A DNA stretch of 64,000 bases from an uncultured virus (IMG/VR IMGVR_UViG_3300011339_000925) (taxonomy: Duplodnaviria > Heunggongvirae > Uroviricota > Caudoviricetes). Of this stretch, positions 21,589 through 44,779 are shown piece after piece. Under the pieces are notes generated by a model that made no database searches, was not told where the DNA came from, and was given only the letters and a program-made list of their open reading frames with translations. The stretch lies in IMG/VR virus record IMGVR_UViG_3300011339_000925; one strand, given 5' to 3'. The translations under genes and the position numbers were made by a program. Numbering within the stretch: the first letter of the stretch is position 1; each line of letters begins with the position of its first letter.

Positions 21589-21876
21589 TTAATTTATATA
21601 TACTCCAATAATTATACTCTCATGAAATACTAAATATCTTTCTTCATTTAATTCAATAGGAGTTACTTGACCTACCCCAAATCGTGATACTGAAATAAAA
21701 TCTCCTACTTTACAAGATACTACAGCATCACCTACTGCTACTACCTCTAGTTTATTCAAAGTTTCTTTTTCTTCCTTAGTCAAAGACTCTGGTTTAATAA
21801 TACCAGAAGTAGTTTTGTTAGAAATAAAAGGTTCTTTTACTACTACGTTACTAAATGTTGGTTTGTAATTAATCAT
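21589..21876 (-). CDS. groES: Co-chaperonin GroES-like
   Basis: KP...VVV, TTSGII, EVVAVG, KVGD, ESIIIG motifs; 95 aa. Confidence 0.85.
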   Translation of the reverse strand: MINYKPTFSNVVVKEPFISNKTTSGIIKPESLTKEEKETLNKLEVVAVGDAVVSCKVGDFISVSRFGVGQVTPIELNEERYLVFHESIIIGVYIN

Positions 21877-24403: not shown

Positions 24404-24844
24404 ATGGAAAGAGCAGATGCTATCCAAATTATCAAATCACGCCGTTCTGTATTAACAGAAGGTGCTTATGATTTGAAAGTGAATTCTGTCGTTGAATACG
24501 ACGGAAAGTTCATCATTAACTTGTCAGCAATGTCAAGTTATCATGTTGAACAAGCAGTTTCCCTAATCAAAAAGGGAGACTATCAAGGAGCTGTAAACAG
24601 TTCTTTATCATTTTCCGCTCGTCCTTCAGACTTTATTCCTTCAAAGGGAGAGTATGTGAAGGTTCAAGTTGAAAAACTCACCACTAAAAATGGTGTAACA
24701 GGTTTGTTTCCAGTAGCACTTTCTCCAATCAAATCTATCGCTTCTGGTAGAATTGACATTGAAAGTTTGTTGGAAGTTGAGGAAGAAGAAACTCAACAAA
24801 CAGAACAAACCGAAGGACCAAAACTTATTAAGAAAGGTAAGTAG
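24404..24844 (+). CDS. Probably highly expressed early protein (possibly OB-fold, acidic tail)
   Basis: Codon bias like the MCP; structured leader; own terminator. Confidence 0.75.
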   Translation: MERADAIQIIKSRRSVLTEGAYDLKVNSVVEYDGKFIINLSAMSSYHVEQAVSLIKKGDYQGAVNSSLSFSARPSDFIPSKGEYVKVQVEKLTTKNGVTGLFPVALSPIKSIASGRIDIESLLEVEEEETQQTEQTEGPKLIKKGK

Positions 24845-24853
24845 TTGGTAATC

Positions 24854-24897
24854 AGCCAATCCTCTCTCCACGGGAGGATTGGTTTTTTTATTTTTTT
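24854..24897 (+). terminator. Intrinsic terminator
   Basis: GCCAATCCTC...GAGGATTGGT followed by a T-run. Confidence 0.85.
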
Positions 24898-24990
24898 ATA
24901 AAAAGAAACAATACATTATAAATGTATTACACAACTTAACAAATTGTGTTATCATTTATTTTATGTTTTATTGTTTAGTTTTATTATACA

Positions 24991-25195
24991 TTATTAATGC
25001 ACCATAACTCACTTCCCAAGGGTGAGCAGTTGTAATATTAGAGATACTGACAATTTTAATTGTAAGTGACAAAAAGCTCTAATGCAAGCAGCGATGTTAT
25101 ATCAGAAATTATATAGTAATTGCAAGTACTATGTAATGGAGATATTTCACCTGTGTCGATCCTTGCAGATATTACAACTGAGTGCAGAGGGGTAA
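24991..25195 (+). ncRNA. Twister ribozyme (P1 type) with long P5 insertion
   Basis: P1 TTAT/GTAA; UAA cleavage loop; P2 TGCA/TGCA; P4 CTCAC/GTGAG; L4 TTCCCAAGG; 3' GAGGG; P5 12-bp perfect stem. Confidence 0.8.
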
Positions 25196-25240
25196 ATAAA
25201 TATTTATACACCACTTTTTTCAAAAATAAACAAAACAATT

Positions 25241-25546
25241 ATGAACGCAAAACAAGAAATTTCTTATCTTAAATTTGAGAATATCAAATGTGCCACTATC
25301 AAATATGTCACTATTAAAGAGATAGATACCATTTCTATTTCTTTAAAAGTAGGACATACTCAAGAAGAATTTAATGCATTTATGAATGCATTAGATTTTG
25401 ATTATGATAATGGGTATGGTAGTCAAGAACTTCATGGTATAATTTGGTTATCCAATGGTAATTGGATGACTAGATGGGAATATGATGGTAGTGAAGGATG
25501 GGAATATAACTCACTTCCTGAAATACCTGAAGAGTTAAAATCCTAA
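25241..25546 (+). CDS. Hypothetical phage protein
   Basis: YDNGYGSQELHGIIW...RWEYDGSEGW. Confidence 0.75.
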   Translation: MNAKQEISYLKFENIKCATIKYVTIKEIDTISISLKVGHTQEEFNAFMNALDFDYDNGYGSQELHGIIWLSNGNWMTRWEYDGSEGWEYNSLPEIPEELKS

Positions 25547-26331: not shown

Positions 26332-26793
26332 ATGGGATTAGACATGTATTTAAGCAAAAAATCTTTTATTGATAATGATTTTACTAAAAGAAAAATAGAA
26401 GGTCAACTAATAACTGACAATAAAACTATAAACATTAATTTTAATAATGTTAGTTGTATTACAGAAGATGTAGGATATTGGAGAAAAGCAAATCAAATAC
26501 ATAATTGGTTTGTAAAAAATATACAACATAATGTAGATAATTGTGGAGAATATTTTGTTAGCAAAGAACAATTAAAAACATTATTAAAAATTTGTAAACA
26601 AGTTCTAAAAAATAAAGAGCTAGCACCAAAATTATTTCCACATTCTCATGGATTTTTATTTAATGCAAGTTATGATGAAAATTATTTTAAAGATATCAAA
26701 CATACTATCAATATTTTAGAAAGTTTAGATTTAAAAAATAATAAAATAAATAGTACTATAAAAACAAGTTATTATTATTCATCATCTTGGTAA
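26332..26793 (+). CDS. Conserved phage protein (MGLDMYL / YWRKANQIHNWF family)
   Basis: Characteristic N-terminus, internal motif and C-terminal YYSSSW. Confidence 0.75.
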   Translation: MGLDMYLSKKSFIDNDFTKRKIEGQLITDNKTININFNNVSCITEDVGYWRKANQIHNWFVKNIQHNVDNCGEYFVSKEQLKTLLKICKQVLKNKELAPKLFPHSHGFLFNASYDENYFKDIKHTINILESLDLKNNKINSTIKTSYYYSSSW

Positions 26794-27650
26794 TTATGTT
26801 ACAAATTAAAGAAAGAAAATCAATGATGATTAAACCATCAGGTAGGTCTACAGATTTTATATCTCCTTCATTTATAATGGGTTGTGGATTTAATTGTTCT
26901 TATTGCTATTGTAAAAGACACAAAACTGAAGGTGTAGATATAGCAAATAATATTAATCAAATACTAACAGAAATAAATAATCATGCAGTATTTGCTGTAG
27001 TAGATAAACCTAATCAGACACATCCTAAATATATTACTTATGATATAGGTTGTAATTCAGATATGTCATTACATGCTAAACATTATGATTGGAAATATGT
27101 TTTTAATTTATTTAAAAATCATGATAGAGCAATGGGTTCTTTTGCTACTAAATATGTAAATACAGATTTTTTAAAATATAATCCAAACAATAAAATAAGA
27201 ATAAGATTTAGTTTAATGCCACAATCTTATGCTGATCAATTAGAACCAAAAACTAGTAGTATAATAGATAGAATAGAAGCAATAGATACATTTATTGACG
27301 CAGGTTATGATGTGCATATTAATTTTAGTCCTGTTATTATTACACAAGGTTGGTTAATTAAATACAAAGAATTGTTTGAGCTTGTAAATACACATGTTAA
27401 ACATAAAAATATTGTAAAAGCTGAAGTTATTTTCTTAACACATAATGAAAAAAAACATGAATACAATATTGCACATGGATTATTTGGTGAACATTTAATA
27501 TGGAGACCAGAATTACAAGAAAATAAAAAATCTCAATATGGTGGTAATAATATAAGATATAAGCATAATATTAAACATGCTTATATAAATCAATGGATTA
27601 AATTACATGATAGTATTATACCTTGGAATACAATAAGATATATATTTTAA
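26787..27650 (+). CDS. Spore photoproduct lyase-like radical SAM protein
   Basis: CGFNCSYCY (CxxxCxxC), FATK, RIRFSLMP, NFSPVI, YGGNNIRY. Confidence 0.8.
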   Translation: MVIMLQIKERKSMMIKPSGRSTDFISPSFIMGCGFNCSYCYCKRHKTEGVDIANNINQILTEINNHAVFAVVDKPNQTHPKYITYDIGCNSDMSLHAKHYDWKYVFNLFKNHDRAMGSFATKYVNTDFLKYNPNNKIRIRFSLMPQSYADQLEPKTSSIIDRIEAIDTFIDAGYDVHINFSPVIITQGWLIKYKELFELVNTHVKHKNIVKAEVIFLTHNEKKHEYNIAHGLFGEHLIWRPELQENKKSQYGGNNIRYKHNIKHAYINQWIKLHDSIIPWNTIRYIF

Positions 27651-39570: not shown

Positions 39571-39927
39571 ATGGAACATAAAGTGTTATTATGGGTAGAT
39601 AGTGAATTAAATATTACTAATGACCCAAGTTTTTTAAAATTTTCTCCTATTGATTTTAAAGAGATAGGTGAAATTATTTGGGTTAAAAATTATGATGATT
39701 TTGTAGCTCAAATAGAAAATTACGGTGTACCAGATGCAGTATCTTTTGATGATAAGTTAGAAGATTTTAATAATAAAAATGGTCTTGATTGTGCTAAATT
39801 TTTATGTTCATATTGCGCTATACATGAAACTCCATTACCTTTATGGTCTTGTCATTTTAAAAATAATAAAATAAAAGAAAACATTAATTCATTAATGAAT
39901 AGCTATTTAAAATATCAAAATGCTTAA
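39571..39927 (+). CDS. Cyclic-phosphate-processing receiver-like domain protein (degenerate)
   Basis: LLWVD...WVKNYDDF...PDAVSFDDKL...GLDCAKFL...H. Confidence 0.6.
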   Translation: MEHKVLLWVDSELNITNDPSFLKFSPIDFKEIGEIIWVKNYDDFVAQIENYGVPDAVSFDDKLEDFNNKNGLDCAKFLCSYCAIHETPLPLWSCHFKNNKIKENINSLMNSYLKYQNA

Positions 39928-40468
39928 ATCTATTATAGAATTTCAAAAAGCTGGTGGTCATACTGTAGCTTATAGCACAGATAAAGATTATGTACCATCT
40001 ATAGAAGATAGAAAATTAAGATTAAAATTAATCTTTGAAGAATTATCAGAATTAGCATTTGCTTATGGTTTGTGCGGTACATTTAGTAAATTATGTACAG
40101 ATTATATAGAAGATAGTTTTTTAAATAAAAATGCAGTAGATACTAAAACTTTTAATAAAGAAGAATCTTTAGATGCACTATGTGATTTGTCTGTTGTAGT
40201 AAATGGTGGATATTGTATTTCAGGATTTACCGATATTGCTGAAGAAGCATATGAAGAAACTATGAAATCTAACATGTCTAAGTTTTGTTATTCTTTAGAC
40301 GAAGCGTTAGCAACTGTAGCTAATAAAGAAGATTGGACTTATAAACAAGTTGTGGTAAATAGCAAAATCATTTATGCTATTTTAAGAAAAGAAGATGGTA
40401 AGATAATGAAGAGTCCTGCTTTTTATAAGCCTGATTACAGTAAACTTTTAAATAAAGATGGAAAATAA
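39920..40468 (+). CDS. MazG-like NTP pyrophosphohydrolase
   Basis: LRLKLIFEELSEL, DALCDL, SNMSK, DGKIMK. Confidence 0.8.
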   Translation: MLKSIIEFQKAGGHTVAYSTDKDYVPSIEDRKLRLKLIFEELSELAFAYGLCGTFSKLCTDYIEDSFLNKNAVDTKTFNKEESLDALCDLSVVVNGGYCISGFTDIAEEAYEETMKSNMSKFCYSLDEALATVANKEDWTYKQVVVNSKIIYAILRKEDGKIMKSPAFYKPDYSKLLNKDGK

Positions 40469-42994: not shown

Positions 42995-44779
42995 ATGGGA
43001 AAAACAGTAGGTATTTTTTCAATGAGTGGTGAAGGTAAAACTACATCCACAATCGTAAATCCAGATGGTAAATACGATTTTAGTAAAGAAGGATATAAAG
43101 GTATAAATCCAAAATCTCATTTTATCATTAATTGTGATAAAAAAGAATTACCTTTTCCTGGAAATATGTGGTCTGCTGAAGAAAAAAATTATGCATCTAC
43201 TTCAGATTATGATTCTATCATAAAATGTATAGATTATTGTTCTAAAACACCTGATATTAAATCAGTTGCAATAGATACAATAAATTCGTATCTTACATTT
43301 AAAGAATTCAATGACAGAAAGAAAATGACTTTCGATCAGTTAAACTAACTTATTTACAATAATATTTTGAAAATACGTAAAATTGATTTACATTTACATT
43401 AATGTAATCAATATGAATAATAAATTAAATCATGCTTTAATAGAATCTCTTGTTTTAGAAGGAAAATCTTATTTAGAAGTTTGTGAAATTACTAAATATA
43501 ATAAAAATTCTGTATATGGTTGGTGTTTGAAAAGATTTGGAAAACTTTCAGATAGAAATAAAATTCGTAGACAGGTAATAGAAATTTCACAAAAACAAAA
43601 AGAGATAATATTTGGTACTTTATTAGGAGATGGTAATTTAAGAAAAGTAAAAAACTCTTATTGGGGAAGAACTAATCATTCTTTATCTCAACAAGAATAT
43701 TGCTTATTTAAGCAAAAAGAACTTTTAGAATTAACTTATTCTGTAGCGTACTCAGATAAAAAATTAAAACAGTTTCCAAATAAAACTTATAAACAATGCT
43801 ACTTTTGCTTTAAACCTAATGAAAATTTAAAGTACTTTTATAATGCTTTTTACTATAAAGAAAAAAAAGATATACCATTAGATTTAACTTTACTTACACC
43901 ACTTGCTTTAGCAATTTGGTTTATGGATGATGGTACAGCTTCTAGTAAATGCAGCATTAGTATAGCAACATGTAGTTTTAGTTTAGAAGGATTAATTAGA
44001 TTAAAAGAGTTTTTAAAACTTAAATATGATTTAGATATTATAATTCAAAAAGATTTCAAAATATACTTTACAGCAGATTCTGGAAAAAAGTTTTTTAAAT
44101 TAGTAAAACCATATATTTTAGAATCTATGCTATATAAGTTTAAACATGTAAATACTCTGCTGATCTAAAATCTCGTGAATCTGGGAAAGTCTTGAAGAAG
44201 ATAACCCTTATCCAAGTTATATAGAAATATATAAAAGGAACAACGACTAGTATATACTTTCTTAATGGGTAGTGCCAAAGAAAATGAAATACCAAGAGTG
44301 CGGGACATTTACCTATATATACTAATATTAAGTGGTAAATGAAGAGATAGTCTGAACTGTATATAACAAAATAAAATACAGAACTAAAGAATAAAGAGTC
44401 TTTAGGATAACAATTTCTTGGGAGAGATTTAGCTCTTGACATTGTAGAATTAATTAATTTATGTAATACTAAACTTCGTAAAGACCAAATTGCATATTTA
44501 TTTGGTCATGTTGAATTAATTACAGATGTAAATGGTGAAGAGAAAAAAGTATTAGCAACTACAGGTAAAAAATTAAAAAAGATATTTCCTGAATCTTTGC
44601 TTCCTATTGTATTATTTGGTAGAGTAGAAGGTGGATTAGATGGTGATAATACTCATTATTTTGAAACCAAAGCATCAAAATCAACTAGTAAAACTCCAAT
44701 AGGTATGTTTAATGATTTTCTAATTCCAAATAGTTTGAAATTAGTAGATGATGCTATTCGTAATTATTATAAAATTTAA
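42995..44779 (+). CDS. AAA (Sak4-like) ATPase, spliced (exon 1 42995-43340, exon 2 44421-44779; 234 aa)
   Basis: Walker A SGEGKTT, Walker B VAIDT; splicing gives MTFDQWRDLA...LFGH...GKK, in frame with the 44597 ORF; SKTPIGMF. Confidence 0.85.
43341..44420 (+). mobile_element. Group I intron in the AAA ATPase gene (1080 nt)
   Basis: Exon ends in U, intron ends in G; core GTGAATCTGGGAA, AACCCTTATCCAAG, CAACGACTA, GATAGTCTGAAC. Confidence 0.88.
43383..44168 (+). CDS. Intron-encoded LAGLIDADG homing endonuclease (I-SceI-like; start probably ~43413)
   Basis: IIFGTLLGDG and LAIWFMDDG; SMLYK near the C-terminus. Confidence 0.88.
   Translation: MIYIYINVINMNNKLNHALIESLVLEGKSYLEVCEITKYNKNSVYGWCLKRFGKLSDRNKIRRQVIEISQKQKEIIFGTLLGDGNLRKVKNSYWGRTNHSLSQQEYCLFKQKELLELTYSVAYSDKKLKQFPNKTYKQCYFCFKPNENLKYFYNAFYYKEKKDIPLDLTLLTPLALAIWFMDDGTASSKCSISIATCSFSLEGLIRLKEFLKLKYDLDIIIQKDFKIYFTADSGKKFFKLVKPYILESMLYKFKHVNTLLI

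Follow-up and report, generated by a model that had tools for sequence, protein, structure and literature searches.

Twister ribozymes are built on three essential helices, P1, P2 and P4, with P0, P3 and P5 as optional additions and P5 present in about 1% of cases, according to the accessible parts of three accounts of the class (PMC5408937, PMC6154101, PMC11662667). The canonical form set out in two of them (PMC5408937, PMC6154101) cleaves at an N|A step, conserves the A at the cut and the G that follows P2, has a four-pair P2, and forms a contact T1 of three Watson-Crick pairs plus A.A between L4 and L1. The contact T2 joins an L2 dinucleotide 'GC' to two bulged L4 bases in one account, which also caps P4 with a U.A pair and an invariant G-C pair (PMC5408937); elsewhere its 5′ strand is given as 'NC' (PMC11662667). 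A 2024 survey (CHiTA) reports, in its accessible text, that L2 tolerates insertions and that P3 and P5 affect cleavage little, and it states that no consensus could be obtained for the P3 and P5 stem-loops, whose role it calls unclear (PMC11662667). Both the twister class and its rare P5-bearing members are known already.

HDV-like 'theta' ribozymes sit beside phage tRNAs. Ribozymes adjoining phage genes and tRNAs have been proposed to process polycistronic transcripts, in a source whose accessible part treats the role of small ribozymes in bacteria and phages as an open question (PMC6765202). The putative element analysed here shares with these the small self-cleaving kind and the intergenic position, and some of its relatives also lie just upstream of a tRNA; it differs in its class and in being predicted to cut at its own 5′ end, so that it would stay on the downstream RNA. 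Judging from its likeness to the described class, we consider it likely that the element is a type-P1 twister belonging to a large phage subfamily that Rfam misses, with a predicted cut between U24995 and A24996. A literature search found nothing on this phage twister subfamily, which is weak evidence of absence given that most subscription journals were outside its coverage.

The element and its surroundings in the window

The window, by which we mean the whole stretch of 64,000 nucleotides from the uncultured virus record IMGVR_UViG_3300011339_000925, holds a single copy of a 205-base putative twister element in gene-free DNA at 24991-25195 (+); CAGTTGTAAT and TTCCCAAGG occur at the element only. 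Its motif string can be read directly from the sequence and agrees, letter for letter, with the one given in a preliminary description of this DNA. From the 5′ end, P1 strand UUAU (24991-24994) pairs with GUAA (25192-25195), both strands covarying in the family, and encloses the 5′ strand of L1, U|AA (24995-24997), with the predicted scissile bond U24995/A24996 and A24996 as the predicted general acid. P2 begins with UGCA and C25002 (24998-25002), the latter available either for a fifth pair with G25182 or for an outer T2 pair with G25021, and is followed by C25003, the T2 partner of G25020, and by the L2 linker AUAA (25004-25007), which in relatives reads AUU, ACAA or AAU. The P4 hairpin CUCAC/GUGAG (25008-25026; strands 25008-25012 and 25022-25026) is closed by loop L4, UUCCCAAGG (25013-25021; TTCCCAAGG in the DNA letters), in which CCC 25015-17 is the T1 strand, A25018 the A.A partner and G25020 the T2 base.

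Directly after P4, the P5 insert opens with CAGTTGTAATAT (25027-25038) and ends with ATATTACAACTG (25169-25180). Its base is a stem whose 5′ strand (CAGUUGUAAUAUU, 25027-25039) is conserved in sequence across the family and whose 3′ strand (GAUAUUACAACUG, 25168-25180) is placed by the fold and by family covariation. The variable arm between them (25040-25167) folds as a three-way junction with P5a at 25040-25080 and P5b at 25083-25167, the latter ending in an apical hairpin at 25108-25137. Junction base A25181 and the 3′ strand of P2, G25182-UGCA25186 (together 25181-25186 and placed by family covariation), lead to the L1 3′ strand GAGGG (25187-25191), with G25187 as the predicted general base, A25188 as the A.A partner and G25189-91 as the T1 strand. 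The three stems that the preliminary description had proposed within the insert all reappear in the minimum-free-energy fold: TTAGAG/CTCTAA at 25038-43/25077-82, TGCAAG/CTTGCA at 25083-88/25162-67 and ATTATATAGTA/TACTATGTAAT at 25108-18/25127-37. The whole element folds with z -3.26, a value equalled by 1 of 200 shuffles, and the P5 arm alone with a minimum free energy of -40.5 and z -4.49, equalled by none of 200. Words resembling TAATGCACC are in excess in the window (25 against 11 expected) and were considered as marks of further copies; the nine inspected besides the element's own lie in coding sequence and have no core behind them.

The element lies in a gap of 396 bases bounded by the ORFs 24404-24844 and 25241-25546, a region that is intergenic on both strands except for two short, unconserved overlapping ORFs. 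A hairpin resembling an intrinsic terminator, with a 13-pair stem (6 GC pairs) and a T run (24854-24884, +), ends gene 24404-24844; it is outside the ribozyme and precedes the element by 107 bases. Between terminator and ribozyme, at the expected promoter position, are two small AT-rich hairpins (ACATTATAAATGT; ACACAActtaacaaaTTGTGT) at 24913-24950 (+), and a sigma-70 promoter scan of the element's surroundings gave scores not above those of shuffles. The first downstream gene (25241-25546, +; 101 aa, PHROG 3972) has DNA similarity to genes of T5-like phages, and in annotated phage records this ORF alone found matches (T5-like phages, 68-75% identity), the element none.

Head, portal and terminase genes occupy the minus strand up to ~23.5 kb, and a replication module with thymidylate synthase, DNA polymerase, helicases, primase and exonucleases runs on the plus strand from ~23.7 to 53.4 kb; from its position relative to these modules, the element stands near the head of the replication-module block. 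A search of the 64-kb window for tRNAs found none, and its RNA-repair genes amount to a lone cREC_REC domain 14 kb from the element. It is a cyclic-phosphate-processing receiver domain (PF20274, E 4e-10) in a small ORF (39571-39927, +) that adjoins a MazG-like pyrophosphatase ORF (39920-40468, +). Elsewhere in the window we noted a LAGLIDADG homing-endonuclease ORF within the replication module, flanked by a Sak4-like gene and the primase (43383-44168, +; PF03161, E 1e-29), a radical-SAM ORF resembling spore photoproduct lyase (26787-27650, +; PF20903, E 4e-20) and a Cpn10/GroES homologue (21589-21876, -; PF00166, E 3e-8).

Related elements and their covariation

The element is more than a chance recurrence of letters. 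Its exact P4/L4 core, the 19-mer at 25008-26 (CTCACTTCCCAAGGGTGAG), occurs at at least 120 loci in IMG/VR phage contigs, around which the upstream TAATGCACCAYWW and the downstream CAGTTGTAAT are kept and everything farther out differs. Among the matches listed, a 3′ core like TGCAGAGGG follows 28-196 nt downstream in 112 of 120 loci, a range whose lower end includes a few false ends; five of the eight loci that lack it have just 0 to 300 bases after the P4/L4 core. A sample independent of the core was drawn by scanning IMG/VR with the two P5 strands only, which gave at least 122 loci, 107 of them distinct after 15 duplicates were dropped. Among the matches listed, the core is of the standard twister type in 55 of these 107; another 26 have it interrupted by a large insertion between the 5′ strand of P4 and UCCCAAG, and the remaining 26 take other forms. 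In the insertion-bearing variant (loci including L179, L196, L150, L160, L138, L177, L121/L143, L173 and L187) TCCCAAG comes ~170-190 nt after the 5′ strand (TAATGCACCAYAACTCAY), and the insertion is itself conserved (GTAGATATAAAGACTTCTTA ... TAAGATGTGAAACYACCTGATTAA ... TTAATCAG); Rfam gave no match to it.

A structural parser that demanded the L4 motif, an AA immediately 3′ of the cut, and at least four of five pairs in both P2 and P4 recovered 134 distinct full elements among the loci listed. The base before the predicted cut is U in 126 of them, C in 6 and A in 2, and the AA of L1 is also found among the P5-anchored loci as listed before any parsing. Departures at key positions are the general-base G replaced by A in L021 and L067 (the exceptions to the 3′ G among the 112 listed loci with a 3′ core), GAAGG in L034 and GAGGA in L015. 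One IMG/VR contig (G002, locus L074) is 100% identical to the window over the region, and another (G001) is without the region. Each of five records checked, three of them at least 95% complete, carries one or two copies.

The family is conserved, and its helices covary, as a folded RNA of the + strand. Alignment A1 comprises 54 sequences, namely the window's copy and 53 chosen members (39 non-majority sequences kept after filtering and 14 of the majority); it leaves out parsed elements whose 3′ end mismatched their L4, mostly false ends inside inserts, though L015 (GAGGA) is a real mismatch. In A1 92.9% of cells in the structure are paired as against 81.8% when shuffled, with none of 500 shuffles as high, and slid partners reach at most 47.8%; these percentages lean toward the structure, and those for P2 and P4 are upper bounds, since row selection favoured pairing there. 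The variety of pair types and the compensations in T1 are independent of that selection. Both-sided changes occur at 23 of the 30 pairs, distributed as 5/5 in P4, 4/4 in P1, 3/5 in P2, 2/3 in T1 and 9/12 in P5.

P4, fully paired in A1 (100%, as an upper bound), comes in 15 sequence types, twelve of them entirely Watson-Crick, two with a G.U pair (CTCAT/GTGAG and CCTGG/CTAGG) and one with a mismatch (TCAGC/GCTGA). P2 appears as UGCAC/GUGCA, UGUAC/GUACA, UGCAU/AUGCA, UGCGU/ACGCA and UGUAU/AUACA; its four-pair form, UGCA/UGCA in the window, has double changes at two of four pairs and is likewise 100% paired, again as an upper bound. P1 counts in the class as a flanking helix that is conserved but dispensable; all four of its pairs form in 56 of the 134 elements, as against 8.3% with random partners. 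G.U pairs such as the 15 UG at column 6-214 in P1 fit the + strand only, which places the constraint on the RNA of that strand. The cleavage-site AA (A8 and A9), the 3′ G and the A after it are invariant in A1, the AA having been required by the parser itself.

T1 (CCC 25015-17 with GGG 25189-91) is 100% paired in A1, with A-U in four sequences at each of two pairs. Eight distinct elements are compensated there in one of two ways, CCA with UGG (UUCCAAAGG with GAUGG in L222, L230, L246 and L259) or CAC with GUG (UUCACAAGG with GAGUG in L253, L275, L308 and L100), and where T1 seems mismatched the cause is a false 3′ end lying within an insert, except in L015 (GAGGA) and in L007, which is degenerate. 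For T2, where CC/GG had been proposed, the two pairs fared differently. C25002 of the outer pair covaries with G25182 (CG 42, UA 10, UG 2 in A1), its combinations with G25021 being CG 42, UG 11 and UA 1, so that covariation does not back the outer pair; the inner pair, C25003-G25020, is CG in 54 of 54 sequences, an invariance by which covariation neither supports nor contradicts it. On these sequence patterns P2 probably has five pairs and T2 one firm pair, C25003-G25020. Alternatively, the pairings of C25002 with G25182 and with G25021 alternate; the coaxial stack has the same length whether C25002 joins P2 or T2.

Placement in the twister class and predicted cleavage

With twister type P1 (Roth et al. 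2014, as presented in the accessible parts of PMC5408937 and PMC6154101) the phage family shares the order P1-U|AA-P2-T2-P4/L4-P5-P2′-GAGGG-P1′, the U, CCCA and A of L4, a T1 made up of three Watson-Crick pairs and A.A, a G immediately 3′ of P2, a variable P1 and a P5 inserted in the 3′ strand of L2. In the window the N|A step is U24995|A24996-A24997, directly before P2, and G25187-A25188 supplies the conserved G, then A, directly 3′ of P2. At the level of sequence, the earlier assignment to twister finds its U|AA, its covarying P2 and P4, its L4 UUCCCAAGG and its GAGGG for T1 all present. The top of P4 has U25014 and A25019 in place and lacks the canonical invariant G-C closing pair; L4 carries an extra invariant U25013 able to pair with G25021 (U-A in L155), and the top P4 pair varies. 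The phage family thus departs from type P1 by one extra invariant L4 U and by the absence of invariant G-C closure, as well as by an outer T2 pair rivalled by a fifth P2 pair and by having no P3. It departs further in its P5, whose base is conserved in sequence, unlike the published P5 stems, for which the accessible text of the survey gives no consensus (PMC11662667), and which bears hypervariable arms of 40-200 nt; some relatives also have a 120-170-nt insertion in L4.

Comparison with Rfam twister-P1 was negative, for the window and for natural relatives with a short P5 alike. Model RF03160, meant for the same permutation (68 positions, gathering score 67.2 bits), has no match to the family: the full Rfam, including RF03160, RF03154 and RF02684, gave 0 twister matches at gathering score over the whole window. 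At E<=10 there was no twister match on 24850-25300 or on the 5′ half alone, and no match on a 131-nt stretch whose insert is 43 nt long or on the natural member L026, whose P5 is a 24-nt hairpin and whose core is 66 nt; at E<=1, the twenty shortest-insert relatives gave no twister match. In five element-bearing phage records RF03160 reached no more than 11.9 bits, at a site unrelated to the element. The altered T2 and P4 top, the missing P3 and the long P5 insert would be enough to explain this failure of the model. The standard RNA catalogue misses what is probably a common phage ribozyme form.

If the element acts as its class does, the + strand RNA would fold co-transcriptionally, with P2, P4 and the P5 base forming, CCCA of L4 docking on GGGA of the 3′ strand (T1) and G25020 docking on C25003 (T2). 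Docking would bring A24996 and G25187 to the scissile bond, in the acid and base roles that the accessible parts of PMC5408937 and PMC6154101 describe. The RNA would then, with good probability, cut itself between U24995 and A24996, leaving an upstream piece that ends in a 2′,3′-cyclic phosphate and a downstream piece that begins with a 5′-OH; the folded body of 200 nt, 154 nt of it in the P5 arm, would remain on this downstream piece as the leader of the gene 25241 mRNA. Such a cut would uncouple the early/replication-module transcript from upstream RNA, including terminator read-through, and give it a structured, 5′-OH-capped end. We infer the cleavage chemistry, its site and the resulting end groups from class membership, and the uncoupling effect from genomic context, in line with the accessible part of PMC6765202.

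In the relatives, too, the element is intergenic and co-oriented with its neighbours. Measured in 46 loci whose flanks were long enough, the nearest same-strand ORFs lie at medians of 119 nt after the element and 134 nt before it; three loci fall inside a same-strand ORF and eight inside an opposite-strand ORF (counting ORFs of at least 40 aa). In 41 of 133 elements, a hairpin with a U-rich tail and a stability of at least -6 kcal/mol terminates 12 bases or fewer from the predicted cut site, and in these 41 P1 overlaps the tail of the terminator-like hairpin. A search for a linked gene found unrelated flanks, 88 downstream ORFs falling into 68 clusters and 66 upstream ORFs into 55. In several phages tRNA genes, or tRNA-like sequences that start with AGTCAGGTGGCG and have a long variable region, begin a few bases past the GAGGG/P1 end of the element (L177:577-651 and L196:93-198, both with a tRNA, and the downstream flanks of L036, L096, L115, L250 and L265). 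Short blocks recur directly after the element in otherwise unrelated loci (GGGAGCATGTGACCATGAAA, CTCTTGTCCAAGCAGGTG and TTGGAGGGTCAGATGCTCCCRAGCAGGTG; L056, L081, L108; L054, L256, L299, L300; L047, L057, L070), and these may be further small RNA modules.

The P5 arm and its frames

In elements found without using P5, the P5 base reads CAGTTG in 61 of 79 and CAGTTGTAAT in 37 of 79. Past ~11 P5 pairs the helix continues with covarying pairs (for example column 51-191), and P5 attaches to the core at L2 with 0-1 linker bases. The arms beyond this base are diverse: 133 distinct arms, with a median of 67 bases, fall into 118 sequence clusters, and no shared motif was found among them. They are nonetheless structured, with a mean z of -2.9 and 74% below -2 against mononucleotide shuffles, values somewhat inflated by a conserved 4-pair stem extension that was shuffled together with the arm. 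In 15 closely related arm pairs the differences comprised 39 at unpaired positions and 18 indels; of the changes at paired positions, 9 were single and left the pair intact, 8 were double and compensatory, and 0 disrupted pairing, a zero that is partly built in by a consensus fold fitted to both sequences. As for the window's own arm, a 19-mer search of IMG/VR found only the identical contig, and a 22-mer search of metagenome contigs gave no match.

The arms are also found outside the twister core. About a dozen of the 26 P5-anchored loci of other forms (among the matches listed) keep GUGAG-P5-AGUGCAGAGGG and lack both U|AA and L4. Such frames are fully nested, three-way or two-way in their helices, and have in common the P5 handle and often the 3′ strand AGUGCAGAGGG. 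One of them forms a single unbroken helix from an upstream CCCUUUGCAC and GUGCAGAGGG, next to a small P4-like hairpin, its GAGGG paired with an upstream CCCUU (L225, L226, L260, L268, L280, L326); a second joins CUCUGUA to UGCAGAG or UACAGAG and has no P4 (L228, L323); a third sets a twister-like 5′ strand UUAAUACACCA against a 3′ strand complementary to it throughout (L283, L295). Across seven cross-frame pairs, which set arms of these frames against arms in twister-type or L4-insert frames, the arms are 94-100% identical, the 32-nt 5′ cores 53-75% and the far flanks 55-64%, the level of unrelated AT-rich DNA in the same alignment. Near-identical arms amid cores and flanks at background level indicate that arm and handle form a discrete unit moving between frames and genomes, and the presence of the same arms in nested frames without U|AA and L4 indicates that some uses of the module do without cleavage. 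The P5 arm behaves as an exchangeable module outside the catalytic core, and these near-identical arms in different frames with unrelated flanks lend support to the idea, raised in the preliminary description, of a P5 domain that is an RNA in its own right displayed on the ribozyme.

We tentatively suggest, as a possibility to which we give clearly less than an even chance, that the arms are a pool of more than 100 unrelated small structured RNAs on one 11-12-bp handle (CAGUUGUAAUA/UAUUACAACUG), swapped as cassettes among three kinds of frame, namely standard twisters, twisters with a large insert in L4 and nested helices without a cleavage site, with the twister as a delivery or processing frame and the arm as its fast-turning payload. 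If some protein of host or phage reads the handle, for instance, an arm could be its decoy or its partner. Engineered twister aptazymes likewise carry a foreign folded domain on a twister stem with the core intact (accessible part of PMC5408937), whereas the phage arms are natural, diverse and without a known ligand.

A twister-derived scaffold that no longer needs to cut, and that uses a compact body of three helices to present the P5 arm, for instance to a protein reading the P5 base, would suit the nested frames, which hold arms 94-100% identical to twister-frame arms despite lacking U|AA and L4, and a P5 base whose sequence is conserved far past the needs of pairing. We think it unlikely, however, as the window's copy retains every catalytic and tertiary element, T1 is kept by compensatory change even though a simpler nested helix could replace it, and 81 of 107 distinct loci that were not selected on the core keep the twister core (among the matches listed). 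That the arm is instead a sensor (an aptamer, a thermometer or a protein-binding site) switching cleavage, as in the engineered aptazymes, strikes us as distinctly improbable: 133 arms in 118 unrelated clusters without a shared motif are unlike a ligand-binding domain, and natural P5 stems have little effect on cleavage in the accessible text of the CHiTA survey (PMC11662667), even if P5 is joined directly to the core at L2 with 0-1 linker bases, engineered aptazymes attach at twister stems (accessible part of PMC5408937) and the arms are structured, with helices kept by compensatory change. We give hardly any credence to a third possibility, that the inverted repeat CAGTTGTAATA...TATTACAACTG is the DNA-level boundary of a small mobile or recombining cassette with an incidental RNA fold, since the fall in identity from 94-100% within the repeat-bounded arm to background outside it (seven cross-frame pairs) is set against G.U-tolerant covariation in P1, P5 and the arms that points to selection on the + strand RNA, arm interiors unrelated to one another, unlike copies of one mobile element, and just 1-2 copies per record checked.

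The family offers a natural test set of hundreds of near-identical cores in unrelated gene contexts, usually one or two to a phage genome, with arms differing in almost every phage, and comparing the twister-type frames with sister frames that carry the same arms and have no cleavage site could separate the role of cleavage from that of the arm. As a ribozyme we find it moderately interesting; should the arms turn out to form a cassette system, it would be more so.

In some phages two elements are near neighbours: in L015 a second copy directly follows the first, one of the two in L026 has the 24-nt P5, and on a further record they lie at G003:C1:31423 and 32140. In one such pair a standard element is 700 nt from one of the L4-insert type; in another, arranged in tandem, the P4 sequences differ. 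The nested frames of L225 and L226 likewise lie in tandem ~700 nt apart on one contig, and on the contig of L021 a Pistol ribozyme match (L021:160-219, +; 33.9 bits against a gathering score of 34.5) lies ~1.3 kb from the twister-type element.
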